Assembly: GCA_029260135.1 (NCBI GenBank)
Contig: JAJDDV010000109.1
Location: 879-64,878, forward strand
Direction: 5' to 3'
Length of the DNA stretch: 64,000 nucleotides
DNA from: Phycisphaerae bacterium
GTDB taxonomy: Bacteria; Planctomycetota; Phycisphaerae; UBA1845
In this document: positions 5,501-19,049 of the stretch, in pieces
Layout: every line of letters starts with the position of its first letter
Numbering within the stretch: position 1 is the first letter of the stretch
Program-made: the position numbers and the translations under genes
Notes under the pieces: generated by a model
Told to the model about the DNA's origin: nothing
Seen by the model: only the letters and a program-made list of their open reading frames with translations
The model's database searches: none

Positions 5501-5853
5501 GGTTTGCTCCTTCGATCCTGGTGAGATGTACCAGCGGACCACCTGGCAAGGGGGAGCCGGCGATCTTCCGATGCGACATAGCTACGAGAGCGAATGGCCT
5601 CCGCGGTTGGATAGCCCCAACGTAGTCCCGGATCGGCGGTCACCATCCAATCGCATCCGTCATCCGCGACGACCTCTCCGAGAAGGGCGACGTTCGAGTT
5701 CCCAGCGTCGATCGACCATTGCTGGGCCCACGCGGGGACACCTCCGAATAGCAGGAGAACAAGTATGGCCGCCAGGCTGTAATTGGATGGGTGTTGCCTC
5801 ACAATCTCATCTCCCGGGAATGGTGTCAGACCGATTCCGTACACATTTTCCAT
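5497..5853 (-). CDS. Small putative exported protein, translationally coupled to the giant gene
   Basis: Signal-peptide-like segment (YSLAAILVLLLFGGVPAWA-QQ); its stop overlaps the next ATG (ATGA). The real start may be the GTG near 5802. Confidence 0.5.
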   Translation of the reverse strand: MENVYGIGLTPFPGDEIVRQHPSNYSLAAILVLLLFGGVPAWAQQWSIDAGNSNVALLGEVVADDGCDWMVTADPGLRWGYPTAEAIRSRSYVASEDRRLPLARWSAGTSHQDRRSKP

Positions 5854-5899
5854 GTGCCACCGAATCGCCGGTCTGTCGCTCCGCCTGAACTGGGGAAGT

Positions 5900-5928
5900 A
5901 ATGTATCTTAAGTGCAAGCTCCCGTCAA
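5900..5928 (-). promoter_or_regulatory. Sigma70-type promoter
   Basis: TTGACG-17 nt-TACATT on the minus strand upstream of the 5853 and 5500 genes. Confidence 0.5.
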
Positions 5929-6055
5929 GCAAGAAAGTGATTTGGGTACTGTCAGGGTGCATGACAGATTAGCAGCCCGTGGTGAAAGTCGTCGGCTGCC
6001 GGTATCCTGTGGGTGAGCCGGTGATGTGTGCCGGTGTGTCAGGGAGGGCACGTTT

Positions 6056-6207
6056 ATGGCGATGGGCAAGCGGGCTCGGGAGGGGCAGGCATCCTTTTGG
6101 ATAGCGACGGATGAGCTGCCGCGTACACCCGGTCATCCCTTTTACGAGCGGCTGAATCAGATCTTCGAGGCCAACGGCTTCGATCGCTTCGTCGAGAAGC
6201 GGTGCGG
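6056..6207 (+). pseudogene. Truncated IS1182/IS5-like transposase N-terminus
   Basis: MAMGKRAREGQASFWIATDELPRTPGHPFYERLNQIFEANGFDRFVEKRC resembles the start of this transposase family; similarity stops abruptly and no DDE domain follows. Confidence 0.7.
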
Positions 6208-6811
6208 CGATGCGGCGCGTCGGTTGGTGCTGGCCGGTCGCGGTTTCCGTTTCCTGCGCTCGTGTGTTGCGGTTAGCAATGCGGCGCGCGTGTGAGGCTT
6301 GGCACGCGCGCGCCGCCCGGGTGAATTCCGACGGTCATGGGCGGAACGACGGATGGATGCCGTCGCGCCGCCGGGCAAGCCGCCGGTCGAATCGGACCAT
6401 GGCCAGGGCGGGGTGCCGACCCGCCCGGCACAGACGGGTTCGGCGCCGCCCCGGCGGACTCCTGCCGCGTCGAATCCTAAAGACGGAGCCGGGACACAGA
6501 CTGCCGTGCCCGGCCCCATCCGCATGCAGGTGTTCGTAGGTGTTACCGACAGTTGGGGCCGGACGGCGCGCGAAGAATTGGTTGGCGGCTGAATTCGCGT
6601 GGGCGAGGGTGTGAATGCGACCCGATCTTCGGGCAGGGGTGGGGGGGTGGAGGTGGCGCGTGTGGCACGCGGTTAGGATCTTGCAGCCGTTCAGGCTGTG
6701 GGAGGTGCATCGAGATGCATGCTGCGCGGTCATCCTTGCCAGGCTGAGGTTGACATCGGTCCTTCCCCCACCCTCGCTGCGCGAGAATGGGGCACCCGCA
6801 AAGAAGAAGAA

Positions 6812-6875
6812 ACAGACCCCCCTGGATCCCCCCTTAGTAAAGGGGGGAGCGGTTGGTCCGCGCAGCGGACCCTAC
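6812..6875. repeat. Composite palindromic repeat (C/G-run hairpin plus GTAG-type REP)
   Basis: cccccctggatccccccttagtaaaggggggag (relatives at about 35495-35532 and 45163-45262) followed by ggtccgcgcagcggaccctac. Confidence 0.7.
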
Positions 6876-7263
6876 GTGGGCCAATGAGGTTCACCCGGCG
6901 CGGAACGGGGCGACGCGATGGATTCTGCTGGGCGTTTCGCCGTTTGTGTTCAAGAAACGCAGCATCTTCACCTATTTAGTCGGTATTTCGAGAAATTTGT
7001 TGAACCGCGGGTGAGCGGCAGGTTATCCTGGGAGATCAGCTAGCCGGTGCCGTTCGGGTCTGTGCTGTTTATGGCTGTCGCGCAGTTCATTCGGAGACCA
7101 GAAGCGGAGTCTGACCCATGCTGAGACGAAGTCCGCGCGTTCTCTCTTCATGTCGTGTTCTCGCTTTGATCTCGTTGGAGTGCGTCGTCACCTCAACGGG
7201 CGTTCTTGGTCGGTCGACGTTCTGTATCGGAATCACACATCGGTCGATGAAAGGTGTCTGATC

Positions 7264-10200
7264 ATGTTCTGTGGACTTATGTTGCGCCGTTCAGTTCTTC
7301 CCGTGATTCTCATCGCATCCATGACGCTCGGGCAGACCCCGTCCGTTTCGCAGGATGGTCGGCGATCGCCGGAAGCGGGCTCCGCCGGGTCGAAGGCTCC
7401 TTCTATTCCGGATGGGTTCATGCTTATCGAGGGGGATATTCTCGTTCCCGTCGATTTTTTCAAACGTTCCCCCGACAAAGTAGCGTACACACCGGATCTC
7501 TGGCCCGGTGGCGTCGTTCCGTATGAGTTTGATGCCAATGTGACTGCCGCCAATCGCACGGCCATGGAAGCGGCGATGGTGAATTGGGAGGACGTAGCGG
7601 CCGTGGACTTTCGCCCCCGGGCGGGCGATGCCAACTTTGTCCACATTCAGGACGATGCTGGAAACCGGTCTCATGTAGGGATGAGAACCGGTCGTCAGGA
7701 CATCTGGATCGCCAGCTGGAATAGCGAGTTTACGATGGTTCACGAACTCGGGCACACTCTCGGATTGTGGCATGAGCAGTCGAGATGGGATCGCGACAGC
7801 TACGTACGGATCGTGGCGGGAAACATCTGCCAGACTTGTTGTGCCGGGGGGGCGTGCGATCACAACTTCGATATAGACATATCCGGCGGGCACGGTCCGT
7901 ACGATTTCGAGTCCCTCATGCACTATGGACAATGTGACTTCTCCGTATGTTCAAGCTGTCCGAATGATACGGGTTGTGCCGAGAGCGGCAGGACTATTGT
8001 CGTGCTTCCGCCCAACGAGAGCTGGCAGAGCCAGATCGGGCAGGGAGACCACCTCAGCGCCGGCGACCGTGCCATCATGGTCTTTCTGTACGGCTGTCCC
8101 GACTGCCCGTGGGGGCCTACGTGTCCTGACTGCGACGGAAACGCCTTTGGCGACGATTGCGAAATGGCGAACTGCCGGGATGATCCTGCGTGCGATGACT
8201 GCAACGGCAATGGCGTTATGGATGCATGCGATGTTTCCGCTTGCACGGGCGATCCAAGTTGCGGCGACTGCAACTTCAACGGTATTCCCGACGGGTGTGA
8301 CATACGTGTTCCGCAGCAGGTTGCGAAGCTGACCGCCCACGACGGCGCGGGCTATGACTTCTTTGGTCATTCCGTCGCCATCGACGGCAACTCGGCGTTG
8401 GTGGGTGCGTACGGCGTGAATGAAGACACCACGGCTGACAGCGGAGCGGCGTACATGTTCTCGCGCTATGGCGGCGTTTGGAGCGAGATCGGAGTCGTGG
8501 GTCGCACGACGGTGGAAGCCGGCGATGCCTTTGGCTGGTCTGTGTCGCTTGATGGCGGTCGAGGGGCCGTTGGTGCTCATCTGGATGACATTTTCGGGGG
8601 TACCGTCGACCGAGGCGCCGCGTTTCCTTTCGATCTTCCGGGTAACTTGTGGGTCAATCCGTTCACGGCGCAGCTTCGCTCTGGCGTGGGTGGTGCCGCG
8701 GGCGACAACTTCGGATCGTCCGTAGCACTCCAGGGTAACACGGCTGTGGTTGGTTCGTGGAAGGACGATATTCTAGGCGAGACGGAAGCTGGTTCGGCGT
8801 ATGTGTTTCGCACAACCACTGGTTCGTGGATTCAACAATTCAAGCTGACCGCGTCCGACGCGGGTGCGTACGATCGGTTCGGTGTTTCCGTGGCTGTGTG
8901 GGGTGACACGGCGATCGTCGGGTCCTACCGCGACGGTCACACGAATCGATGGAACGCGGGTTCGGCGTACGTCTTCACGCGTAGCGGAACCATCTGGACG
9001 CAGCAGGCCAAGCTGATCGCGTCCAGCCCTTTCGACGAGGAATTGTTCGGCCAATCGGTGGCGTTGTACGGCGACACAGCGTTTGTCGGCGCTCCGGGCG
9101 AATACTATCCAGGAGGGGGTGTGGGTCCCGGATCGGTGTATGTCTTCACGCGTACCGGAACCACCTGGACGCAGCAGGCCAGGCTGACGGCGTCCGACGG
9201 GGAAGTAGGCGACGGATTCGGGTATGCCGTGGCGGTGCAGGGCGTTACGGCGCTGATTGGGGCTCCTTACGATGACCTTACCGTAGGCGCGGAGGAGGGA
9301 TCTGCATACGTCTTCGTCCGCTCCGGGGCCTTTTGGCGGGAGAAGGCGAAGTTGACGGCCTCGGACGCGAAGGCATCGGCCAGGTTCGGTTGTTCTGCGT
9401 CGTTGGATGACGGCACGGGCATCGTGGGTGCCGAGCGGGATGATGTTGCGGGGATGACCGCTGTTGGTGCGGCCTACGTCTTCACGCTTCCGACATCTGC
9501 GGACTGCAACAACACGGGTGTACCCGACGAGTGTGAGTATGATTGTACCGGCAACGGTATCGTGGATGACTGCGAGATCGCGGATTGCGTCGGGGACCCG
9601 GCATGCGGCGACTGCAACGGCAACACACTTACGGATGAGTGCGACATTGCCTTATGCGGTCACTCGAGTCCGGCATGTGAGGACTGCAATTCGAACGGCG
9701 TACCGGATGGTTGCGACCTCAGTTCTTGCTCCGGTGATCCGGCGTGCGCCGACTGCCAAGGAAACGCCATTCCGGACGAATGCGACATCGCGAGTTGTGC
9801 GGGCGATCCGGCGTGCGGCGACTGTAACCTTAACGGGAGCCCCGACGGCTGTGACTTGACGACATGCGGTGGAGATCCTGCATGTTCGGACTGCAACGGC
9901 AACAGCCTTCCGGATGCCTGTGACATCGCCGGGTGCTCGGGTGATCCGTCGTGCGGCGACTGCAACGTCAACGGCATCCCCGACGGTTGCGAACTGTTGA
10001 GCTGTGCGGGAGATCCCGCGTGCGCTGACTGCAATGGCAACAGTGTTCCCGACGCCTGTGACATCGCCGGTTGTGCGGGGGATCCGGCATGTGGTGACTG
10101 CAACGTCAACGGGATTCCCGATGGTTGCGAGTTGGCGGGTTGCGCAGGTGATCCGTTGTGCAGCGACTGCAACGGCAACAGTGTTCCCGACGCTTGCGAC

Positions 10201-13200
10201 ATCGCCGGGTGCGCGGGTGACGTGGCATGCGCCGACTGCGACGGCAACAGCGTTCCGGATGCGTGCGACGTTTCCGCTTGCGCGGGCGATCCTAGGTGTT
10301 CGGACTGCGATCTCAACGGCGTTCCGGATTCCTGTGATATCGTCGCCTGTGTCGGCGATCCGGCCTGCGCCGACTGTGACGGCAACAGCGTTCCGGATGC
10401 ATGCGATCTGGTCACGTGCGTCGGCGATCCGGCGTGCGGCGACTGTCAAGGCAACGGCGTGCAGGACGCGTGCGACATTGCCTCGTGCGCCGGTGATCCG
10501 TCCTGTGCTGATTGTCAGGGCAACGGCGTACCGGACGGTTGCGATTTGGCTCCGAGCAGCCTCGCCAGGCTGGGTCTCGCAGGCGTGGCGTATCCGGAGT
10601 TCTTCGAGTCCTTGGCGGCGGTACCGTCGATTGATGAATGGGTGCAGGCATTGTCGCTTCGGTCATCCTTCGACTGCAACGTCAACTCCATACCGGATGA
10701 GTGTGACATCTCTTCGGGTCAGAGTCAGGACCACGACGGCAACGGCATTCCTGACGATTGCGAGGTGTTCAGGTTCTACGTGAACATTGCTTTCTCAGCG
10801 GTAGGTGCCAAGCGTTCGAGCTTGTACGGCATGGGCTGGGACAATCCGTTCTGGACGCTTCAGGAGGCGCTGGATGTGGCCGTCGGCGTGGGTGAGGCTG
10901 AGATTTGGGTGGCGGCCGGCACGTATACGCCTGATTACAACGCCGGCAGCGATTCTGGGATGTCGTTTGCGCTCAGGAACAAGGTGGCGCTTTATGGCGG
11001 TTTCATCGGCGTTGAAACCGAACGATCTCAGCGTGATCCCGTAGTCAACGAAACGGCTCTCAGTGGTGATCTCAACGGTGATGATGGAATCGGAATCGTC
11101 ACCGACAACTCGATCCATGTGATTACGGCGCATAGCGTCGACTCCACGGCTGTTCTCGACGGATTCACGGTATCGGGTGGGAACGCGATCGCGACTTGGT
11201 TCCCCGCGAATTCGGGCGGTGGGTTGTACAGCGACGGCGGGAGTCCGACCATCAGGAACTGTACTTTCACCGGGAACACGGCCGGCGTGCGGGGTGGTGC
11301 GATGTACACCGTCAACGGTGCACCAACGATCGACGGTTGTACGTTCACGGGCAACAGCTCGGGTTGGGGTGGGGCCATGAGGAACACCAACAGTGCTTCG
11401 ACGATCCTGGATTGTGTTTTCTCCGGCAACTCGGCGGTTACGAGCGGCGCAGCGGCGTATAGCAGCGACGGTGGCGTAACGTTCACGGGTTGTACATTCG
11501 ACGGAAACGACGCCGGCTGGGGAAGTGCCTTGTACAACGACGGTGGACTACCGATCATTGAGGATTGCACTTTTACGGCCAACACGGCCGTCAACAGCGG
11601 CGCCGCCGTCTACAACAGCTCCAGTGATGCGTCGCTCGTGCTATGCACATTCCAGGGGAACAGCGCGAACTGGGGTGGGGCCATCTACAATGATACGTCT
11701 GCTCCGAACGTCAGCGATTGCGGCTTTGACAACAACCAGGCGACGTACGGCGGGGCGCTGGTCAACGACAGCATTGTCGCCAGCTCCATTTCGCGCACGG
11801 CGTGGCGCGATTCACTGAAGCCCGTCGGCGGCAACTTTGAAGCGAGGGCGATCCCGGATGCAGATCCGTTTTCGATTCCGCAGCGACATCGGGCGTCCAG
11901 GCAGGTCGGCCAGGTCTATCAGAGATGCACATTCACAAACAACACGGCGCTGTATGGTGGTGCCGTCATGACGCTCGGCGGAACCGATGGCTACGTGAAC
12001 TGCCGGTTCGACAACAATGTGGCCGAGGGAGACGGGGGCGCCATGAACTACCAGGCGGCGGCGAGCGGATCGTTCACCAACTGCGAGTTCTTCAACAACC
12101 GTGCCAATGGTGATCCGGCGGTGGCGGGTGGCGGTTCGCCTTTCGGCGGCGGTGCGGTTGCACTTTTTGTTGAGTGCAACGTGTCGCTGACGAACTGCGC
12201 CCTGGTGAATAATCAAGCCGGCGGTCTCGATCCGACGGATGGCGGGGGTGGGCTCATCGTTTATGGCAGTACGGCCACGGTGATCAACAGCGTGTTGTGG
12301 AATAACTCGGATGTTGGTGGTACCGACGAATCGGCGCAGGTCTATCTGTTGGAACTTGGGGCTGCGTCGGTGGACTACTCCTGTGTTCAGGGCGGATGGT
12401 CAGGGGGTGGAGCGGGCAACCTCAGTTCCGACCCGGGCTTGTCGGATGTCGTTGCGGGCGACGTGCACCTTGCACGAGGGTCACTCTGCATCGATGCCGG
12501 CGACAACACGGCCGCGGAACTGTCCGGGGTTACTGTCGATCTCGACGGCAACCTGCGATACGTCGACGATCCGGCCACGCCCGATACGGGTGTCGGTGCG
12601 CCGCCGGTGGTTGATCTGGGTCCGTATGAGTTTTTCGACATCTGTCCGATTCCGGCTGCGCCCGAGGTTGAGCGGTTAGCGCTTCCGGACACTCCGGCGA
12701 GCATCAAGAACCGGTTTCTCGCGATCCTTCCGGGCAATGCGGGGTTGAGCGCGGCGGTTCGTGTCGTTTTGACGGATCTTCCCAGCCCCTTCGAGGGTTT
12801 GATCGGCGAGGTGATGTGGGTCGAGATTCCGGCGGTGTACTGCGAGAACTCCGGTCAGGATGTTCCAGGTAGCGGTGAGTGTAGTGTCGCGCCCGGTTCG
12901 TTGGGGCCGACTTACTTCGGTGCGACACTGGGATGCACCCCGGCGTATGCCGACTGGAGCGTGTTTGACACCGTTCACATCTTCGATGAGCTGGTCATTC
13001 CGGGTGCGTCTTACACGATCCAGATCGTCGCTGAGATTTGTGACACGACTGTGGAGGCCAACTTCTCTGGTCCACTCAACGTGGATACGAACTCGTGGGG
13101 TGACTCGGTCGGCGCGTTTGACGCGGGGTTCGCGATGTGGGGCCCGGCGGACGGTGTCGTCAATGTGACGACAGATGTCGTGGCGCAACTCGACAAGTTT

Positions 13201-13368
13201 TCCAATCTTCCGTCGGCGCCGGCCAAGGTTAGCGTGGACATCGATCCGTCGTTGCCGAATCATGTCATCAACATCACGGATGTCACGCGAACGCTTGATG
13301 CTTTCCGGGGTGCGTCTTACCCGTTCCAACCGGGGCCGGCGCCGTGCAGGTTCGCGAAGCGGTTTTAA
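7264..13368 (+). CDS. Secreted astacin-family (M12A) zinc metalloprotease with FG-GAP propeller, Cys-rich repeats, beta-helix and dockerin-like tail
   Basis: IEGDI propeptide motif, HELGHTLGLWHEQSRWDRD, Met-turn SLMHYG; FGxSVA...GAAYVF repeats; GGA/FxxN repeats; CIDAGDN...DLDGNLR...DLGPYEF. The ORF is open from 7150; start placed at the signal-peptide-like Met. Confidence 0.9.
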   Translation: MFCGLMLRRSVLPVILIASMTLGQTPSVSQDGRRSPEAGSAGSKAPSIPDGFMLIEGDILVPVDFFKRSPDKVAYTPDLWPGGVVPYEFDANVTAANRTAMEAAMVNWEDVAAVDFRPRAGDANFVHIQDDAGNRSHVGMRTGRQDIWIASWNSEFTMVHELGHTLGLWHEQSRWDRDSYVRIVAGNICQTCCAGGACDHNFDIDISGGHGPYDFESLMHYGQCDFSVCSSCPNDTGCAESGRTIVVLPPNESWQSQIGQGDHLSAGDRAIMVFLYGCPDCPWGPTCPDCDGNAFGDDCEMANCRDDPACDDCNGNGVMDACDVSACTGDPSCGDCNFNGIPDGCDIRVPQQVAKLTAHDGAGYDFFGHSVAIDGNSALVGAYGVNEDTTADSGAAYMFSRYGGVWSEIGVVGRTTVEAGDAFGWSVSLDGGRGAVGAHLDDIFGGTVDRGAAFPFDLPGNLWVNPFTAQLRSGVGGAAGDNFGSSVALQGNTAVVGSWKDDILGETEAGSAYVFRTTTGSWIQQFKLTASDAGAYDRFGVSVAVWGDTAIVGSYRDGHTNRWNAGSAYVFTRSGTIWTQQAKLIASSPFDEELFGQSVALYGDTAFVGAPGEYYPGGGVGPGSVYVFTRTGTTWTQQARLTASDGEVGDGFGYAVAVQGVTALIGAPYDDLTVGAEEGSAYVFVRSGAFWREKAKLTASDAKASARFGCSASLDDGTGIVGAERDDVAGMTAVGAAYVFTLPTSADCNNTGVPDECEYDCTGNGIVDDCEIADCVGDPACGDCNGNTLTDECDIALCGHSSPACEDCNSNGVPDGCDLSSCSGDPACADCQGNAIPDECDIASCAGDPACGDCNLNGSPDGCDLTTCGGDPACSDCNGNSLPDACDIAGCSGDPSCGDCNVNGIPDGCELLSCAGDPACADCNGNSVPDACDIAGCAGDPACGDCNVNGIPDGCELAGCAGDPLCSDCNGNSVPDACDIAGCAGDVACADCDGNSVPDACDVSACAGDPRCSDCDLNGVPDSCDIVACVGDPACADCDGNSVPDACDLVTCVGDPACGDCQGNGVQDACDIASCAGDPSCADCQGNGVPDGCDLAPSSLARLGLAGVAYPEFFESLAAVPSIDEWVQALSLRSSFDCNVNSIPDECDISSGQSQDHDGNGIPDDCEVFRFYVNIAFSAVGAKRSSLYGMGWDNPFWTLQEALDVAVGVGEAEIWVAAGTYTPDYNAGSDSGMSFALRNKVALYGGFIGVETERSQRDPVVNETALSGDLNGDDGIGIVTDNSIHVITAHSVDSTAVLDGFTVSGGNAIATWFPANSGGGLYSDGGSPTIRNCTFTGNTAGVRGGAMYTVNGAPTIDGCTFTGNSSGWGGAMRNTNSASTILDCVFSGNSAVTSGAAAYSSDGGVTFTGCTFDGNDAGWGSALYNDGGLPIIEDCTFTANTAVNSGAAVYNSSSDASLVLCTFQGNSANWGGAIYNDTSAPNVSDCGFDNNQATYGGALVNDSIVASSISRTAWRDSLKPVGGNFEARAIPDADPFSIPQRHRASRQVGQVYQRCTFTNNTALYGGAVMTLGGTDGYVNCRFDNNVAEGDGGAMNYQAAASGSFTNCEFFNNRANGDPAVAGGGSPFGGGAVALFVECNVSLTNCALVNNQAGGLDPTDGGGGLIVYGSTATVINSVLWNNSDVGGTDESAQVYLLELGAASVDYSCVQGGWSGGGAGNLSSDPGLSDVVAGDVHLARGSLCIDAGDNTAAELSGVTVDLDGNLRYVDDPATPDTGVGAPPVVDLGPYEFFDICPIPAAPEVERLALPDTPASIKNRFLAILPGNAGLSAAVRVVLTDLPSPFEGLIGEVMWVEIPAVYCENSGQDVPGSGECSVAPGSLGPTYFGATLGCTPAYADWSVFDTVHIFDELVIPGASYTIQIVAEICDTTVEANFSGPLNVDTNSWGDSVGAFDAGFAMWGPADGVVNVTTDVVAQLDKFSNLPSAPAKVSVDIDPSLPNHVINITDVTRTLDAFRGASYPFQPGPAPCRFAKRF
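9541..10550 (+). repeat. Intragenic tandem repeat, about 14-15 units of 69 bp (23 aa)
   Basis: Unit DCNGNSVPDACDIAGCAGDPACG, 4 Cys per unit. Confidence 0.9.
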
Positions 13369-13413
13369 TGCTTGGGAGCAGGCGCATCAAGTTGTTCCCT
13401 ACGGTTGGTGACT

Positions 13414-13503
13414 ATGTGGCGGCCGTCGGACGGTGTTGTCAACAGGACGACGGATGTCGTTGCGCAACTCGACAAGTTTTCGAGCCTTCCCACGGCACCG
13501 GCG
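13414..13503 (+). repeat. Diverged copy of the dockerin-like tail segment 13135-13224
   Basis: MWRPSDGVVNRTTDVVAQLDKFSSLPTAPA vs MWGPADGVVNVTTDVVAQLDKFSNLPSAPA (25/30 aa identical). Confidence 0.85.
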
Positions 13504-13504
13504 G

Positions 13505-13659
13505 TTGTCCAAGCCGGTCGTGTTCCCGTCGATTATAGCCATGTTGGCGTTGTTCTGGTCAAACGGATCATCCACGTCCCAGACCCGAAAATGGACGGGA
13601 ACGTTCGCCATCGGCGGATCGAGCGTGGCAGGGACCGCTACTACAGACTGTAGTAACAC
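13505..13659 (-). pseudogene. Fragment of the zincin gene's central region
   Basis: 13547-13626 is identical (80 bp) to 17686-17765; the fragment encodes ATLDPPMANVPVHFRVWDVDDPFDQNNANMAIIDGNTTG. Confidence 0.85.
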
Positions 13660-13687
13660 CTCCGGCAGGTTGACAATTCCCTTCGCC

Positions 13688-14911
13688 TCAGCGGTCGCGC
13701 TCGCGTTCTTGCTTGGCCGACTTGCTACGCTCGAGTTTCGCCCTGTATCCGTTCACGTCAGACTCCAGGCGATCCGCGAGTTCACTTGCGTTTGACACAT
13801 CGATGCGGCGAATCTTGACCGCGCATCCGTGAACCTTGTCCCATTGTTCGCTCAGCCCATACAGACGACCAAGCTGAAAATACGCCGCCGTACGCGGCCA
13901 AAGGTCTTGTCCTGCTGCCGTCGTGAGGTATCGCAACGCCGTCTCACGTGCCTTCGCCGCACGATCGTACACGGCCTGCAACTCCTCAGTGAGATTCTCT
14001 TGCGTCCACCGTTCAAGCTGCCCGTGGCTTGCCACGCGTTCGAAAGTCTCAATGTGGACCAGTCCCACGTATCGCGCCAGGTATCCTGCGTATGCCGTAT
14101 CCGGGAACCGTTTGAGCAAGTCCGTGAGCGTCTCAACCAAGGCCGCTTGCTTACGATTGTATGCGTCGCCTTCCGGATCGATCCGTAGTGGTTTCGTCTG
14201 TCGAATCACGCGTTTGAGAAGGTCAAAACCGAACTCATATTCTCGAATTGTCTCCCCCTCCGTCTCGATCAGGTAGTCCATGTTCACTCCGAGATAAGAT
14301 ATGCTCAGCGCCCGAAGTTCGGTAAAGAATGCTCTGTCCGTATCCGAGATCGGCTCAACAAATACCTTCGCTTCGTTGGACAAGACGGGGGCGAATCTTC
14401 CGTCCGGCTGGCATGCACACTGCACGGTGTATATTCCGGGCTCCGGGAACGCTACACCTGTGGGATAACCTCCACGGAGAATCAGCAATTCCCCAGTCGT
14501 GGACTCTCCAGGGGCAAGGACTACTTCGTGCCGTGCCGGTGAAGTCTCTGAGTGTGTCAGCCACTGGTGCATGCGCACGACGATGCCGTCGGGTTGAGTC
14601 ACGAGCGAGGCGGCACGGTGTGGGAGTCCATCATCGCGCACGTCGATTGTCAAAGGTAGAATATCGCGATTCGAGAGCGTAACATTGACAAGCAGGGGCT
14701 CGTACGCGCTCATGTTCTTCGCTGATGCCCGCACTAGGACCTCAATCCTGTGCTCAGGGGGCGGAAGACTGTCAGATTGCGCACGCCAGGGATTCACGGT
14801 TCCTGGCTGACCTTGCGCAATGGTCACAATAATCGTAACGTAGACAACAGGTAGACACCTCGCCAAGTTCATCATCTGTCTCCCACAGATCGCTATTCTC
14901 GGACGACCCAT
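13688..14911 (-). CDS. Exported partner protein 2 (predicted beta-sandwich plus TPR-like helices); candidate immunity/inhibitor
   Basis: Signal-peptide-like N-terminus; ATG overlaps the stop of the orphan zincin (TGATG); motifs AYEPLLVNVTL, FPEPGIYTV, VLSNEAKV, RFPDTAYA have counterparts in partner 1. Confidence 0.75.
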   Translation of the reverse strand: MGRPRIAICGRQMMNLARCLPVVYVTIIVTIAQGQPGTVNPWRAQSDSLPPPEHRIEVLVRASAKNMSAYEPLLVNVTLSNRDILPLTIDVRDDGLPHRAASLVTQPDGIVVRMHQWLTHSETSPARHEVVLAPGESTTGELLILRGGYPTGVAFPEPGIYTVQCACQPDGRFAPVLSNEAKVFVEPISDTDRAFFTELRALSISYLGVNMDYLIETEGETIREYEFGFDLLKRVIRQTKPLRIDPEGDAYNRKQAALVETLTDLLKRFPDTAYAGYLARYVGLVHIETFERVASHGQLERWTQENLTEELQAVYDRAAKARETALRYLTTAAGQDLWPRTAAYFQLGRLYGLSEQWDKVHGCAVKIRRIDVSNASELADRLESDVNGYRAKLERSKSAKQERERDR

Positions 14912-15591
14912 CAAGGGCCTGTGTAAGTCCGCAGTTCAAGAAGACTCTGCGAACCGAAGGAGTCCGTTTGGATATCTTCATCCATCAACTCCGTTGTATG
15001 GTCGACACCCAGCGCATGGGCGATTTCGTGGGCCACGGTAATACGCAGCGCCGCCCCACCGAACCCGTCATCGACCGCCTCGGCAAAGATCGCGCACATT
15101 CCTGTGTATTGCGAGCCCCATTTGCCTACAGGTTTTACATCTCCGAAGACGCCGACCTTGTTTGCATTAATACCCTTTGTAGCCTCAACCTCGCCGTCAA
15201 AGTCTTCGTGGCGCTCCGCTTGAAAAGCGGAGTACACGTAGGCCGTCCAGAAGTCCGGCGTGGAAACCGCAAGGGAGCGCGACAGAAGGATCGGAATCCA
15301 CGCTGCTTCGTATTCTATGTTGTCGATATTCTTGATGAACGCGATTCCGGTCAGCGAGGTATGGCTGCCCGCGACGACCGGCAGGATGGACTCCGGAGCA
15401 AACCGTTGTTCGCTCTTCGGTGCGCCCGCCTGCAGACGGAGGTCGCGCGTTAAGACGACGATGCCCCTGTCGTGTACTGTGCCATCGCAAGGCCCGGCAC
15501 AAACGACGGCAGAATGAACCTCAGGAAGGCCCTCATTATCGTTCCGATTCTTGATCTGTTGCTCTCTTGAGTTGGTCGAGTTCCTTGGCAA
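14911..15591 (-). CDS. Orphan zincin-like C-terminal module (no signal peptide, start uncertain)
   Basis: TVAHEIAHALGVDH...LMD; colinear with the C-terminus of 16521-19049 (STPDFW/SSASYW, CAIFAE/SAIFLQ, DSFGSQSLLELR/DHFSAETINIIR). Confidence 0.7.
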   Translation of the reverse strand: MPRNSTNSREQQIKNRNDNEGLPEVHSAVVCAGPCDGTVHDRGIVVLTRDLRLQAGAPKSEQRFAPESILPVVAGSHTSLTGIAFIKNIDNIEYEAAWIPILLSRSLAVSTPDFWTAYVYSAFQAERHEDFDGEVEATKGINANKVGVFGDVKPVGKWGSQYTGMCAIFAEAVDDGFGGAALRITVAHEIAHALGVDHTTELMDEDIQTDSFGSQSLLELRTYTGP

Positions 15592-16516
15592 GGCGCCTGC
15601 CCTGCCACGCCCACTGCCCTGCTGGATTGACTTGCTCCAATTGCGCTAGCGCGACGCGCGCTTCCGCGTACTTTCCGCATGCTGATCGAGCTACACTCAG
15701 TTGAAACAGCGCTTCCGTTCGGAGTGCATGGTCCGGAGCCAGTTCCCCCAAGCCTGCGGCGAGATCGTCGGCGATCGGCTCCCACCGCCGTTGATCATGC
15801 ACGCGAACCGTTGTCTTCGTGATGCTCTTGGCCCGCTCAAGCGACAACGCAACAACAGCAAGTCTCCCGAGATAGGTATCCGAATACTGTTGCGCTACAA
15901 CACCGAAAGCCTCTATTGTCGAAGCCGCCCCTTCGTGCGCCAGAAGAAACCTGATGCCGTCGGGATACGTTGGTATGACAACGTCAGCAGCGAGTTGCTC
16001 GCGCCGATTCAGCGAAGATACGGCAATCCGAATCGGGTCTGATCTCAGCGAGTTTCCCCTGTCGGTCAGCACAAGGAAGTACTCGCCGGGCTCCAGGGGC
16101 GTTCCTGATTCACGTGGGGTCTCCGAAGTGCTTGAGACCGCGAAGATCCCAATGGCCCTGCACCTGAAAACACCGTCGTGAGCCCCATTTTGGGTTTCCC
16201 ATTCAGGAGACATCAAGGCACTCGCGACAATCGTATTGGATCCGTCACGTAAGGTTGCGTAGAAGCGTCGGCGCGTAGCGGCAATCGGTACGCCCCGCTC
16301 GTCCGTCCGCTGACGTTCACTCAACGACAATTCGGCTTCCAGGGACACTGAGAGTGAAAAGGGCTCGTACACGCGGATTGATGCCTGGTCAAGGGCAATA
16401 TGTAGCGACTCCCCATTCGTGTCCGATGCTCCCGCGCCGAGGAGAAACAGAACCACCAGTGTACTGGCGTAAGGCTGTCCACCTACTATCATGATGCGTG
16501 CTATCATTGTATACAT
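15536..16516 (-). CDS. Exported partner protein 1; candidate immunity/inhibitor
   Basis: Starts 4 nt after the zincin stop; hydrophobic signal (STLVVLFLLGAGA); VYEPFSLSVSL, LEPGEYFL, LRSDPIRI, QYSDTYLG; TPR-like end (EALFQLSVARSACGKYAEA). Confidence 0.75.
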   Translation of the reverse strand: MYTMIARIMIVGGQPYASTLVVLFLLGAGASDTNGESLHIALDQASIRVYEPFSLSVSLEAELSLSERQRTDERGVPIAATRRRFYATLRDGSNTIVASALMSPEWETQNGAHDGVFRCRAIGIFAVSSTSETPRESGTPLEPGEYFLVLTDRGNSLRSDPIRIAVSSLNRREQLAADVVIPTYPDGIRFLLAHEGAASTIEAFGVVAQQYSDTYLGRLAVVALSLERAKSITKTTVRVHDQRRWEPIADDLAAGLGELAPDHALRTEALFQLSVARSACGKYAEARVALAQLEQVNPAGQWAWQGRRLAKELDQLKRATDQESER

Positions 16517-16520
16517 GACA

Positions 16521-19049
16521 TTACCAATCGATTTCACTACGAATGATGTTGATTGTCTCAGCGGAAAAGTGGTCAAACTGCCCCGGCGCGCCAACGTCCA
16601 TGATTGACTGCGGGACGTGGTCCGGATGAGAATCGCACGTGTGAACGATCTCATGCGTAACAACGTGCGGTTCATCCGTCGTGAATGTACAAGCGCGATC
16701 GTCTACAATCACCTGAAGGAAGATGGCACTGGTACCGGAGTCGTCGTCGGTCACCCCACTGTCTTTGCCTTCGGACCCCGGAACGGCAGGTGCCGGGCAC
16801 GGGTCTGGATCGTAGTCTGTGTTCTCTCCAGGCTCCCAGCAGCCGACGACACAACAGGCCCAGTACGACGCACTTGAAGACAAGGTGCATCCGTCATCCC
16901 AAGGGCCGAATCCGTACTCAATCGAATAATCATCCAGGTGGCGGTCAAAGCCGACAATTGTCTGAGAACTCGCGCCCGCACTTTCTGGGAACACGAATGC
17001 GGCCGCAAACGCATTGACGCCAAGTTGCCCGAAACTCGGAAAGTGCGGGAGTACCATGATGTCGTCATCATCGGTGAGCGTGAATATGCTCCCCGTTGAG
17101 CAAGTTCCCGGGACGCCTGCAATCGTGACGGTGTCGCTGAACCCCGGGAGGTTGCTTGTACTCAGCAGAACCGGGTACGCATCAGAACCCAGCGGACAGT
17201 TCGCGAATGCGATCTCGCCACCCTCGAAAGCATTGAGGTCTGATACATCGTCAGCTAGGTTAAGCCCTAGATTCACCACGCTTTGCCCCACCGCAGGCGA
17301 ATTCCGCGTGATCGATGCAACAGTACCTACAACCCGCGTCTCTGAAATGTCCGGCCGGGCCATGCTGTCCGTCTCGACGTGAAGCTTCCGCCATACCGTC
17401 AGCATCTCGCTCCAGAACAGCGGCACCGAGTATCCGCTCCAGTTGCCGCCGCCGGGCATGCTGTTGAGCGCGTCGGCGTCGGCTTGGGTGGCCTGCGTCA
17501 GCGCGTCTTGCAGGACGGACGCGCCGGCTCGGTAGTTGTTTCCGGGTTGCATCGATACGGTGATCAGCACGGTGGCCTCGCCGTCGGCGTTCGTCACGCC
17601 CTGGTGGCTTCCCACAGCCGGGTCCGACCCGCCAGAGGGTCGATTATCCGGGCCGGTCGTGTTCCCATCGACAATCGCCATATTCGCGTTGTTCTGGTCA
17701 AACGGATCATCCACGTCCCAGACCCGAAAATGGACGGGAACGTTCGCCATCGGCGGATCGAGCGTAGCCACAAGCGCTACCAGACGCCGCTGCGAGGCCG
17801 ACGCGTCGTTCGGAGACGTCTTGCCGGGGAAGATCCCTACGCCGCCGTTGTTCGGACAAGGAACAAAGAGCTCCGGGTTGTTTCCGACCTTCCGCCATGT
17901 TAACGCGGCGACCTCGACACTTGGGATGGGATCGCTGTCGGTGCCACACCATCCGTAATCGGCGCTGGCGAAGTAGCAGCCCATCGTCAGCCTGGCCGGG
18001 CTTCCGCAGGCCGTGACCGCGCGACGGCCCTCAATGTAGAACGTGCCGGGAATGGGCCATTCTTCATACGCCGACGAGCTCCAGGTGGTCTTGTCCGGAG
18101 CCGGGAACAAACCGTGGATGTAGCCGATGCTCCCCAGGCCGTGCATCCCCCACACGACCCGAAGGTGCGGTACCCCATCACACCAGGTGGAGAGGTCCGT
18201 CGGCGGACACCCCGAGACCGATACGGTAGCTGGCACCAAGTCGTTCTCGCTGGCCATCGGCCCAGGGTCAGCCCAGTCGGCCCTACCGTTACCGTTATCG
18301 TCGTCGTTGTTCGCGGGAACCCACGCTGGCACGTTGAACGTAACGAAACATCCTGCGCGGCTGCAGCCATTCGTCAGTGGCGGCCACATCGGCCAGGTCG
18401 AGCACTCGGTGGTGACCGGGTCGCAATCATGCTCCGTAGAGCATTCGTTGTTGTCGTCACAATCGATTGGTGTTCCGGTACACGCGCCGTACCGGCAGGT
18501 GTCGTCCTCCGTACACTCGTCATGATCGTCGCACGGGCGACGGTTGAACGGGTTGATGCAGCCGTCACCAAAGCAAATGTCTTCCGTACAGAAGTTGTCG
18601 TCACTGCAATCGCGAAACCGTATTCCGACACACTCGCCGTTCATGCAGGCGTCGTTCTTGGTACACGTATCCCCGTCTTCGCAGGCGATTCCGTTGTTCG
18701 GAAGGTGGGAGCACGTGCTTCCCGCGCAGAGGTCCAGGGTACAGGGGTTGTTGTCATCGGTGCAGGGGAACCCGTCTTTGGGCAGGTGCGTGCACTCCGT
18801 GCCGCGGCAGACGTCGTCCGTACACACGTTTCCGTCCGACGTGCAGATGCCCTTCACCGGCGTGTTGTAGCACACGCCGTCGATACACTCGTCGTCGGTA
18901 CAAACAAGATTGTCATGGCAGGGATTCTGTCCTCCGATGGCATACGTACGGAGCCCGCAGTTTGGATCCGGTACTTCGTGCGGATCCTGTGCGAAGAGCG
19001 TTGGTCCGGTCCCGGCCTGCACGATCACTGTGAGGACGAGGACGCCCAC
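16521..19049 (-). CDS. Secreted protein with Cys-rich CDDxNxCTxDxC repeats and a C-terminal HExxH zincin-like domain
   Basis: Signal-like N-terminus; about 6-7 Cys-rich repeats; NNDDDNGNG motif; VVTHEIVHTCDSHPDH...SIMD near the C-terminus. Confidence 0.85.
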   Translation of the reverse strand: MGVLVLTVIVQAGTGPTLFAQDPHEVPDPNCGLRTYAIGGQNPCHDNLVCTDDECIDGVCYNTPVKGICTSDGNVCTDDVCRGTECTHLPKDGFPCTDDNNPCTLDLCAGSTCSHLPNNGIACEDGDTCTKNDACMNGECVGIRFRDCSDDNFCTEDICFGDGCINPFNRRPCDDHDECTEDDTCRYGACTGTPIDCDDNNECSTEHDCDPVTTECSTWPMWPPLTNGCSRAGCFVTFNVPAWVPANNDDDNGNGRADWADPGPMASENDLVPATVSVSGCPPTDLSTWCDGVPHLRVVWGMHGLGSIGYIHGLFPAPDKTTWSSSAYEEWPIPGTFYIEGRRAVTACGSPARLTMGCYFASADYGWCGTDSDPIPSVEVAALTWRKVGNNPELFVPCPNNGGVGIFPGKTSPNDASASQRRLVALVATLDPPMANVPVHFRVWDVDDPFDQNNANMAIVDGNTTGPDNRPSGGSDPAVGSHQGVTNADGEATVLITVSMQPGNNYRAGASVLQDALTQATQADADALNSMPGGGNWSGYSVPLFWSEMLTVWRKLHVETDSMARPDISETRVVGTVASITRNSPAVGQSVVNLGLNLADDVSDLNAFEGGEIAFANCPLGSDAYPVLLSTSNLPGFSDTVTIAGVPGTCSTGSIFTLTDDDDIMVLPHFPSFGQLGVNAFAAAFVFPESAGASSQTIVGFDRHLDDYSIEYGFGPWDDGCTLSSSASYWACCVVGCWEPGENTDYDPDPCPAPAVPGSEGKDSGVTDDDSGTSAIFLQVIVDDRACTFTTDEPHVVTHEIVHTCDSHPDHVPQSIMDVGAPGQFDHFSAETINIIRSEIDW

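Follow-up and report, generated by a model that had tools for sequence, protein, structure and literature searches.

The window analysed here is a stretch of 64,000 nucleotides, and the locus of interest occupies positions 13399-19049 within it. A sequence-only reading of the stretch had listed five elements in this region, namely a full-length secreted protein, a first exported partner, a headless HExxH module, a second exported partner and a fragment of the central domain of the first protein; all five are present in that order on one strand, the minus strand. GC content is 0.55-0.59 in the cassette region and 0.60-0.65 in the flanks (composition of the window), and in three DNA runs from one biofilm-metagenome study at least 99% of the stretch is covered; no RNA run was listed as containing it. 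Neighbouring genes of the contig encode giant secreted proteins, one of them an astacin. The features are as follows:

16521..19049, minus strand: full-length, putatively exported main protein, 842 aa (ORF, identical to gene call P0021)
17352..17918 (~aa 378-566), minus strand: central domain of the main protein (HMM match, E 4.5e-76)
17361..17393 (aa 553-563), minus strand: boundary motif WRKLHVETDSM (motif position, alignment A1)
16524..17342 (aa 570-842), minus strand: variable C-terminal module, a second beta-sandwich followed by the predicted metzincin catalytic domain (~aa 667-842)
15536..16675, minus strand: ORF of partner 1; from its likely ATG, 15536..16516, 326 aa
14911..15591, minus strand: headless HExxH ORF (orphan, putative metzincin), motif HEIAHALGVDH
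13688..14911, minus strand: partner 2, 394-407 aa, with its start at 14872 or 14911
13502..13641, minus strand: central-domain relic (DNA repeat D6)
13414..13502, plus strand: 89-nt copy of the 3'-terminal stretch of the neighbouring gene for a 2072-aa exoprotein (DNA repeat D7)

From N- to C-terminus the main protein comprises a hydrophobic N-terminus, Cys-rich repeats, an Asp-rich region, the Ig-like central domain, the second beta-sandwich and the metzincin. The N-terminus (MGVLVLTVIVQAGTGPTLFA, read by eye) is hydrophobic and has no positive n-region; full-length relatives carry classical signal peptides, and export of the main protein by Sec is presumed. Residues 368-842 were modelled with AF2 (pLDDT 89.2, pTM 0.89), and in this model the central domain adopts an intimin/invasin-like Ig fold (VIA Z 9.2 to intimin 6tpl_B, 94 residues aligned, rmsd 2.7). 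Within the boundary motif, alignment A1 has L183, W186 and R187 as invariant positions and T184, L189, E192, D194 and M196 as nearly invariant ones.

The C-terminal module is, on the predicted structure, a metzincin. Searching the whole 475-aa model with Foldseek returned tandem Ig-like matches only (TM <0.2), and detection of the metzincin needed VIA-align, which gave Z 9.0-10.5 to 18 metzincin entries (137-168 residues aligned, rmsd 2.9-4.1). Scores of 10.0-10.5 were obtained with CpaA (6o38_A), ADAM8 (4dd8_A), ADAM17, archaemetzincin (2x7m_A), ulilysin (2cki_A) and mirolysin (6r7u_A), and the top match of the catalytic domain is CpaA (Z 10.5, 153 residues aligned), tied with the entries that follow it. 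Metzincin entries of the PDB are also matched by a profile of the C-terminal module, with E-values from 7e-4 to 0.08. The module resembles members of the metzincin clan (adamalysin/reprolysin M12B, archaemetzincin, pappalysin, fragilysin, snapalysin) in its fold, in the HExxH on the active-site helix, in a Met a few residues past the third-ligand position and in a short C-terminal helix; the HExxH and the later Met are conserved in the family of C-terminal modules. It differs from the clan in that the main protein carries HEIVHTCDSHPDH...SIM (HEIVH at aa 799-803, 16641-16655), in which the spacing of the third ligand departs from canonical HExxHxxGxxH. The orphan zincin has a canonical zinc motif and Met-turn (HEIAHALGVDH...ELM), and the main protein of a second locus in the same genome, on contig C20, is also canonical. 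A C-terminal HExxH is found in 78 of the 84 homologues examined, and the canonical motif in 33 of those 78 (28 with H and 5 with D as the third ligand).

Pfam assigns no family to the main protein at E up to 0.1 and none to the partners, and the orphan zincin falls below the cut-offs of the reprolysin, matrixin and astacin models (Reprolysin_4, 17.2 bits against 22; Peptidase_M10, 17.1 against 24); NCBIfam gave no match for the main protein, the orphan or the partners. Together with literature searches that yielded no description, these results uphold the earlier impression that this is not a described family.

The two zincin modules are, as had been noticed, highly diverged yet alignable (24% identity over 173 aa, E 3e-4). 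A headless divergent HExxH module is indeed present, but it consists of the catalytic domain only and has no convincing start codon. The complete catalytic domain is formed by the last 165 aa, residues 62-226 (14914-15408, HExxH at 15016-15030), which match positions 111-267 of the C-terminal zincin (CT) HMM at E 4.8e-35. Inspection of the ORF revealed neither signal peptide nor central domain, and a start-codon scan found no canonical start of its own, only a TTG inside partner 1.

The fragment at the far end of the locus proved to be a relic of 140 nt, corresponding approximately to aa 430-474 of the main protein and identified by its 89% DNA identity to 17641-17780 (D6), far beyond chance; a second relic at G000:C12:287-418 is 95% identical to it. 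The original description had to be amended, however, because the relic is fused head-to-head, on the opposite strand, to the 89-nt copy of the 3' end of the 2072-aa gene (13414-13502 against 13135-13223, 83% identity, D7). This junction marks a rearrangement scar and is crossed by a Logan contig spanning 13300-13576. The relic probably represents the beginning of one more orphan cassette, which was subsequently truncated. The two orphans of the window lack DNA homology to the main gene sufficient for a productive swap, and recombination across D6, the sole direct repeat, would remove the C-terminus of the live gene. These orphans resemble truncated relics, decayed or silent, more than spare parts ready for use.

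Such features could be taken to mean that the locus is an ordinary tandem paralogue family in decay, in which headless modules, relic and extra partners would be duplication, deletion and IS debris with no cassette function, and gene conversion would keep the central domains similar. The joining of the relic to a copy of another gene's 3' end, the absence of start codons from the orphans and an IS transposase within a related array (L011, below) would all fit this account, as would the failure to find a form joined across D6 in the three DNA runs, although these were available as contigs, which break at the repeat, so that its absence is uninformative. Simple decay is nevertheless considered quite improbable: the orphan catalytic domain stays open over 244 codons, shares 77% identity across 165 aa with the C-terminus of a full-length relative (P0032) and keeps every motif residue, this genome has the same four-gene order at two loci that differ in subtype, and subtype and partner match across genera.

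The likely ATG of partner 1 (16516) lies 4 nt past the TAA of the main gene. The protein has a hydrophobic, signal-like N-terminus and a single homologue among 5.8 billion proteins, and it belongs to partner cluster 2, together with ORFs located behind zincins of the same HE..HTC subtype in L050 and with an L011 partner that has no zincin directly upstream. In partner 2 (cluster 1; AF2 model, pLDDT 81) a signal peptide precedes a beta-sandwich (aa 43-173), which is followed by TPR-like helices (aa 177-393). Its family numbers 16 members including itself, none of them named (alignment A2), and the relatives with available DNA are less than 50% identical. Its ATG overlaps the TGA of the orphan as TGATG, as had been reported, but the gene call and 15 of 15 homologues favour a start 13 codons inward, at 14872; coupling is thus possible, not certain. 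The claim that the two partners are highly diverged is substantiated, since BLASTP detects no similarity between them and their families are linked only at the profile level (hhalign probability 97.7%, E 1.3e-12, mainly in the C-terminal helical half). Structural comparison of the partner gave marginal matches to BsuPI (3isy_A, beta-sandwich, Z 8.9, 114 residues aligned, rmsd 4.4) and to the AsaP1 propeptide (2x3a_A, Z 8.7), against a noise level of 7-8. With partner 2, Foldseek returned Fn3-like domains of GH3 enzymes, complement C4 and M1 aminopeptidase at an uninformative TM of ~0.2, and a protein atlas nothing but unnamed clusters, in which TPR families occur in 10-36% of the members. Prediction of a complex between orphan zincin residues 58-226 and partner 2 residues 27-394 (with alignments, without controls) scored 0.00, which is no evidence either way.

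An exported protein encoded directly behind a secreted protease might also serve the protease alone, and this is the chief rival account. On this account the metzincin would act on proteins outside the cell (prey, host or polymer-bound) and degrade them, the product of the downstream gene would be a dedicated periplasmic chaperone or self-protective inhibitor that keeps it folded, silent or secretion-competent until release, there would be no bacterial antagonism, and the extra copies would be decaying tandem duplicates. Such a role is played by AprI for AprA, by CpaB for CpaA and by potempins for KLIKK peptidases. The top structural match is to CpaA in complex with its chaperone (6o38_A, Z 10.5), all C-termini belong to one enzyme family, the contig neighbours include the giant secreted proteins mentioned above, and the accessible text of PMC9890683 describes a specific-inhibitor gene adjacent to each KLIKK peptidase; all of this speaks for a chaperone or inhibitor. 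The account is nonetheless held to be unlikely. Intact partners adjoin zincins that have no head, signal peptide or start codon, as in the window, where partner 2 has an uninterrupted ORF of 394 aa with 32 of 32 invariant family positions preserved and the adjacent orphan zincin is unable to be exported, and some partners have no upstream zincin at all, whereas a chaperone without a client should decay.

The proposed layout of a full pair followed by an orphan pair recurs both in the same genome and in others. On C20, a main protein of at least 1170 aa is followed by a partner (364 aa), a headless zincin (182 aa) and a second partner (428 aa); the window locus and C20 are the only two loci of the genome that match the central, CT or partner profiles. 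(Continuation of C20 into the start of C12 was considered and rejected, the orientation of the relic being unsuitable and no end sequence being common to the two.) The same four-gene layout is found in other Phycisphaerae/Planctomycetota genomes, in which the spare copies often retain the central domain: in L025 and L010 the main gene and its partner are followed by a headless copy beginning in the central domain, and the L011 array runs main gene, partner, extra partner, headless central+CT, IS-disrupted partner, headless central+CT, partner, extra partner. Orphan cassettes of C-terminus and putative immunity gene lie downstream in the window, C20, L010, L011, L025, L055 and L062. Across 25 loci, 22 of 29 zincin ORFs are directly followed by a same-strand ORF of 272-456 aa; three of the seven exceptions lie at a contig end and one has an IS-disrupted partner. 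Conversely, other loci contain three partner genes that are not immediately preceded by a zincin. The family has a patchy distribution, occurring in 16 of the 401 genomes of the class and in 9 of 41 relatives.

That C-termini and downstream genes vary together is borne out across genomes and genera, the HExxH subtype matching the partner cluster. HE..HTC zincins pair with cluster 2 (2/2), HEIGHS[AG]GNTGTE zincins with cluster 4 (2/2), HE.GHQF zincins with cluster 3 in two cases and the related cluster 7 in one, and the HEIxHxLGxxH group with cluster 1; P0032, the 77% relative of the orphan, adjoins P0007, a homologue of partner 2 (adjacent NCBI locus tags, contigs of equal length). Within loci (L025 main against orphan, L010a against L010b, L011 orphan 1 against orphan 2), identity is 80-98% through the central domain and 15-30% right past WRKLHVETDSM. 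Comparison of the window and C20 main proteins gives 52-70% before the motif and 18-38% past it, and cassettes of one type, compared between genomes, show an even 40-70% identity from end to end. Headless copies repeatedly start at the same place, where the central domain begins, and from there to the motif share 80-98% identity with the live gene, a signature of recombination cassettes and not of random decay, which argues further against the chaperone account and its decaying duplicates. Type matching and homogenisation of central domains could, however, also arise among ordinary tandem paralogues through gene conversion.

The central domain stands directly upstream of the zincin in 62 of 62 testable representatives, and every C-terminus linked to it is a predicted metzincin; one protein, in L028, has a central-like domain with a different C-terminus. 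C-terminal diversity thus consists of subtypes within one enzyme family, and the zincin module is not promiscuous in the manner of classical toxin domains. The idea of a polymorphic metalloprotease effector is supported in part, by the covariation of subtype and partner and by the collapse of identity at the motif, but not by a mix of unrelated toxin folds on a common scaffold.

The locus is read, with slightly more confidence than doubt, as that of a polymorphic metzincin effector exported by Sec, accompanied by cognate exported proteins for inhibition or immunity and by orphan cassettes that have been displaced. Architecture, folds, layout recurrence, cassette-type matching and the mosaic identity pattern were computed here; export, binding, inhibition, toxicity, target and the direction of recombination are what we infer from them. 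The main protein would leave the cell by Sec with its metzincin at the C-terminus behind the conserved Ig-like domain, and the downstream partner would bind and block the protease subtype encoded with it, whether in the periplasm or on the cell surface, protecting the producer and its kin. New protease-partner cassettes would be installed by homologous recombination inside the central domain, displacing the earlier cassette downstream; the displaced protease would lose head and start codon, and the displaced partner gene would stay intact as retained immunity. The window would represent a late stage, with a live pair (main protein and partner 1), a displaced pair (orphan and intact partner 2) and the stub of a third cassette. 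No route of delivery into a target cell is evident, the main protein having no T5SS, T6SS or T7SS marker. A more specific proposal, offered tentatively and judged less likely than not, is that of a contact-independent, Sec-exported polymorphic metzincin bacteriocin system of Planctomycetota, with the Ig-like 'pre-toxin' domain as recombination handle and the exported beta-sandwich/TPR-like proteins as a hitherto unknown superfamily of subtype-specific metzincin inhibitors.

By analogy, the layout is typical of bacterial toxin-immunity weapons. In Rhs, CdiA and MafB loci a full toxin-immunity pair is followed by orphan CT-immunity pairs. The likeness to these systems and to the Sec/T2SS class (accessible text of PMC3482391) extends to a large exported protein whose conserved region ends in a short motif before a variable C-terminus, a linked downstream gene varying with that C-terminus, headless downstream copies with part of the conserved region, and patchy distribution. 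The locus differs in having no Rhs/YD, filamentous haemagglutinin, MafB-N, PAAR, LXG or HINT elements, in the Ig-like nature of the pre-toxin part, in C-termini that are all predicted metzincins and not unrelated toxin folds, and in partners of 272-456 aa that appear to be exported and combine a beta-sandwich with a TPR-like domain, unlike small cytoplasmic proteins. An Rhs or filamentous scaffold is thus absent, as had been stated, but this is no novelty, since Sec-signal-only polymorphic toxins already form a category in Table 1 of Zhang et al. 2012 (accessible text of PMC3482391).

KLIKK peptidases of Tannerella forsythia, in the accessible text of PMC9890683 and PMC4404884, are likewise secreted, share one nearly identical non-catalytic domain and are each accompanied by a neighbouring gene that encodes a specific exported inhibitor, and mirolysin is among the structural matches (6r7u_A, Z 10.1). 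According to the same text, however, potempins are lipoproteins of 98-132 residues encoded upstream, the peptidases are of different catalytic classes with a T9SS C-terminal domain, and headless orphan copies are not described there. CpaA of Acinetobacter (PDB 6o38) is, in the accessible text of PMC4713064, an adamalysin-like secreted metzincin behind beta-rich domains that requires a membrane-associated chaperone encoded alongside, and here too the adjacent gene specifies an envelope-located binding protein; CpaB is a type II secretion chaperone, however, the single locus is described there without subtype cassettes or orphans, and Pfam and NCBIfam searches detected no sequence similarity.

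To our knowledge, little is known of competition among Planctomycetota. Literature searches found no paper linking Phycisphaerae with polymorphic toxins, although the supplement of Zhang et al. 2012 may list planctomycete toxins. In the accessible part of that 2012 catalogue (PMC3482391), metallopeptidase toxin families stand without an immunity protein, Tox-MPTase1-5 and Tox-HopH1 being entered as '-' under immunity. If the preferred reading holds, the locus and its relatives offer matched protease-inhibitor pairs of several subtypes, a defined recombination boundary and a natural set of specific metzincin inhibitors, and pairs, boundary and inhibitors would be directly testable by standard expression and inhibition assays; if the more specific proposal is true, the partners would be the first clear immunity proteins for metallopeptidase toxins in polymorphic systems and would form a new class among natural inhibitors of metzincins.

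The five-element layout claimed by the sequence-only reading is present in full at 13399-19049, all on the minus strand:

16521-19049, minus strand: main gene, encoding an 842-aa protein with a hydrophobic N-terminus followed by Cys-rich repeats
Likely ATG at 16516, minus strand: partner 1, starting 4 nt past the stop codon of the main gene
14911-15591, minus strand: orphan HExxH ORF, overlapping the end of partner 1
13688-14911, minus strand: partner 2, whose first ATG has one base in common with the TGA of the orphan
13502-13641, minus strand: central-domain relic, 89% identical in DNA to 17641-17780 within the main gene

The overlapping first ATG by which partner 2 was proposed to be TGATG-coupled to the orphan does exist; however, the coupling is only possible and not established, because the public gene call, like all 15 homologues, begins 13 codons further in. 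The GC content of the cassettes is 0.55-0.59, versus 0.60-0.65 in the flanks. Abutting the relic is an 89-nt copy (83% identity) of the 3' end of the adjacent 2072-aa gene, on the opposite strand; this junction is a rearrangement scar. A second relic, just upstream of the window on the same contig (G000:C12:287-443), shares 95% identity with the first and stops at the same point in the gene; each relic adjoins the 3' end, or a 3'-end copy, of a giant exoprotein gene. The 2072-aa exoprotein (7150-13368, plus strand) carries an astacin domain, seven FG-GAP repeats, a beta-helix and PMP repeats, and its gene contains at 9489-10763 about 13-20 tandem 69-nt (23-aa) Cys-rich units of the form CxDCNxNGxPDxCD. 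A 1940-aa exoprotein (G000:C12:640-6459, minus strand; window 1-5581 plus upstream sequence) has a dockerin-like C-terminal stretch similar to that of the 2072-aa protein, and DNA similar to the 3' end of its gene lies on at least six other contigs (C38, C146, C204, C135, C210 and C3). More than 20 contigs, often at their ends, carry a short dispersed repeat whose units measure about 40-72 nt; it is tandem at the start of this contig (G000:C12:1-270) and occurs again at window 6681-6799 (100% identity over 119 nt).

Pfam and NCBIfam give no family for the main protein, partner 1 or partner 2, and for the orphan solely sub-threshold reprolysin, matrixin and astacin matches around HExxH. An AlphaFold2 model of main-protein residues 368-842, built from 66 sequences (pLDDT 89.2, pTM 0.89), is split by VIA-align into three domains: an intimin/invasin-like Ig domain (model residues 11-187; Z 9.2, 94 aligned, rmsd 2.7), a second small beta-sandwich with likeness to phage tail-tip domains (201-295; Z 7.9), and, from about residue 185/300 to 475, a metzincin catalytic domain (Z 10.0-10.5, about 150-168 residues aligned) that matches CpaA, ADAM8, ADAM17, archaemetzincin, ulilysin and mirolysin. 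The family sequence profile reaches PDB metzincins weakly (E 7e-4 to 0.08). The orphan has the canonical HExxHxxGxxH followed by ELM, and the main protein the non-canonical HEIVHTCDSHPDH followed by SIM; the high divergence claimed for these two alignable modules is borne out by their 24% identity over 173 aa.

The model of partner 2 (pLDDT 81) shows a signal peptide followed by a beta-sandwich (aa 43-173) and then a TPR-like helical domain (aa 177-393), the last matching TPR proteins at Z 9-10, under the tool's stated bar for helical folds. Likenesses of the modeled beta-sandwich to the Bacillus intracellular proteinase inhibitor 3isy_A (Z 8.9) and the AsaP1 propeptide 2x3a_A (Z 8.7) are leads only, because both lie near noise level. 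Partners 1 and 2 have no BLASTP similarity to each other, as expected from the divergence ascribed to them. Clustering of the partners from all retrieved loci assigned partners 2 and 1 to clusters 1 and 2, respectively. A profile comparison matches the two clusters (probability 97.7%, E 1.3e-12), chiefly in the helical half, and other clusters tie to cluster 1 at 80-90% profile probability, so that the partners form one divergent superfamily.

With the query genome or protein itself included in every count, the central domain was found in 16 of 401 genomes of the class; central domain plus CT (the C-terminal HExxH module; aa 368-842) in 9 genomes when 41 relatives were searched; main-protein residues 368-842 in 84 of about 5.8 billion proteins, none with a functional name; the C-terminal 270 aa in 123 of 1.84 billion cluster representatives, every time at the protein C-terminus; and partners 2 and 1 in 16 and 2 family members, respectively, of about 5.8 billion proteins. 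The order is repeated, with other subtypes, at a second locus of the window's own genome: contig C20 encodes a main protein of at least 1170 aa, then a 364-aa partner, a headless zincin of 182 aa and a second partner of 428 aa. The rest of that genome gave no profile match. Among loci from other genomes, L025 and L010 each combine a main gene with a partner and with a headless copy beginning in the central domain, and L011 is a longer array: main gene, partner, extra partner, headless central+CT copy, an IS transposase cutting a partner, second headless central+CT copy, partner and further extra partner. The transposase-like ORF (L011:7961-8944, minus strand; zinc-ribbon N-terminus) interrupts a cluster-1 partner gene, the remainder of which is at 8942-9814. 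In L027 (G017:C80), three tandem paralogous ORFs of an unrelated family (190-3409, plus strand; 346-394 aa) sit directly upstream of a full-length member of the main-protein family.

Across 25 loci, 22 of 29 zincin-bearing ORFs are followed directly by a same-strand ORF of 272-456 aa. Of the seven others, three are at a contig end and one has an IS-disrupted partner; one, at L060 in a complete genome, has just an ORF of 248 aa about 1 kb off, and the two in L062 have genes of other kinds downstream. L062 (G271:C56, 8201-18000, minus strand) encodes three large proteins with a common N-terminal region and different ends, one of them ending in central domain and zincin, and also a 265-aa headless zincin; the ORF after the latter, of 221 aa, has hydrophobic segments and is not the usual partner.

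C-termini and downstream genes vary together, as the sequence-only reading would have it: HE..HTC zincins pair with cluster-2 partners (window main gene, L050), HEIGHS[AG]GNTGTE zincins with cluster 4 (L010, L011), HE.GHQF zincins with cluster 3 (L009, L054) or the related cluster 7 (C20), and the HEIxHxLGxxH group with cluster 1. The pair of orphan and partner 2 recurs elsewhere: the last 165 aa of the orphan are 77% identical to the C-terminus of the homologue P0032, next to which, judging by locus tag, lies P0007, a homologue of partner 2 (47-49% identity), and P0064 and P0009, on one JGI contig, look like the same pairing. Such pairing and co-variation would also be accounted for by a secreted protease that has its own chaperone or an inhibitor for self-protection, for which CpaA-CpaB, KLIKK-potempin and AprA-AprI are models; however, this main rival, which is conceivable but rather unlikely, leaves unexplained the persistence of partners without clients.

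Between copies of one locus the central domain is 80-98% identical, and identity falls to 15-30% directly past the boundary motif WRKLHVETDSM, whereas same-type cassettes of different genomes have an even 40-70% identity on either side of it. Such a mosaic would be expected were recombination or conversion to take place at the central domain, with C-terminus and partner moving as a unit. The window's orphans are poor spare parts. The orphan has no canonical start codon ahead of its catalytic domain save a TTG inside partner 1, the C20 orphan has no canonical one at all, and the sole repeat in common with the live main gene would, on recombining, delete that gene's C-terminus.

The co-variation and mosaic agree with the proposed polymorphic metalloprotease effector; the variable part, however, is one enzyme family split into subtypes and not a set of unrelated toxins, since in 78 of the 84 homologues HExxH stands near the end, 38-77 residues before the C-terminus, and the central domain, matched in 74 of the 117 zincin representatives examined, is present in all 62 with room upstream. 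No delivery apparatus is evident. One protein that joins a central-like domain to another kind of C-terminus was seen, in L028 (G003:C236). It has 1420 aa (1556-5815, minus strand), carries that domain near its N-terminus and ends in a non-zincin C-terminus; next comes a partner of 373 aa that belongs to another family (405-1523, minus strand). A headless copy of the same C-terminus, 229 aa long, stands apart (6947-7633, minus strand) and has its own 411-aa partner (5769-7001, minus strand). The cassette logic is the same, the payload different. Polymorphic toxins with only a Sec signal, and the zincin toxin domains Tox-MPTase1-5, some in planctomycetes, are already listed by Zhang et al. 2012 (PMC3482391), in table rows where the immunity entry for the latter is '-'. 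No paper combining 'Phycisphaerae' and 'polymorphic toxin' was found, and the literature searched on Planctomycetes/Planctomycetota, metallopeptidase and immunity held nothing on the zincin-partner family, on which supplements, outside that search, may bear. That the sequence-only reading recognised no described family accords with both the domain databases and the literature searched. The logic is familiar; neither the handle domain nor the metzincin subtypes nor the partner superfamily has been described.

That such loci are simply tandem paralogues in decay is considered quite improbable. The effector-immunity reading is modestly favoured, its strongest points being the recurrent headless copies that retain the central domain, the sharp identity boundary past WRKLHVETDSM, the matching of subtype and partner across genera, and the intact partners beside zincins that cannot be exported. 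On this effector-immunity reading the main protein would be a putative Sec-exported metzincin effector, each subtype of which is matched by a putative exported inhibitor, and displaced cassettes would survive mainly since their partner genes may still protect against neighbours making that subtype.
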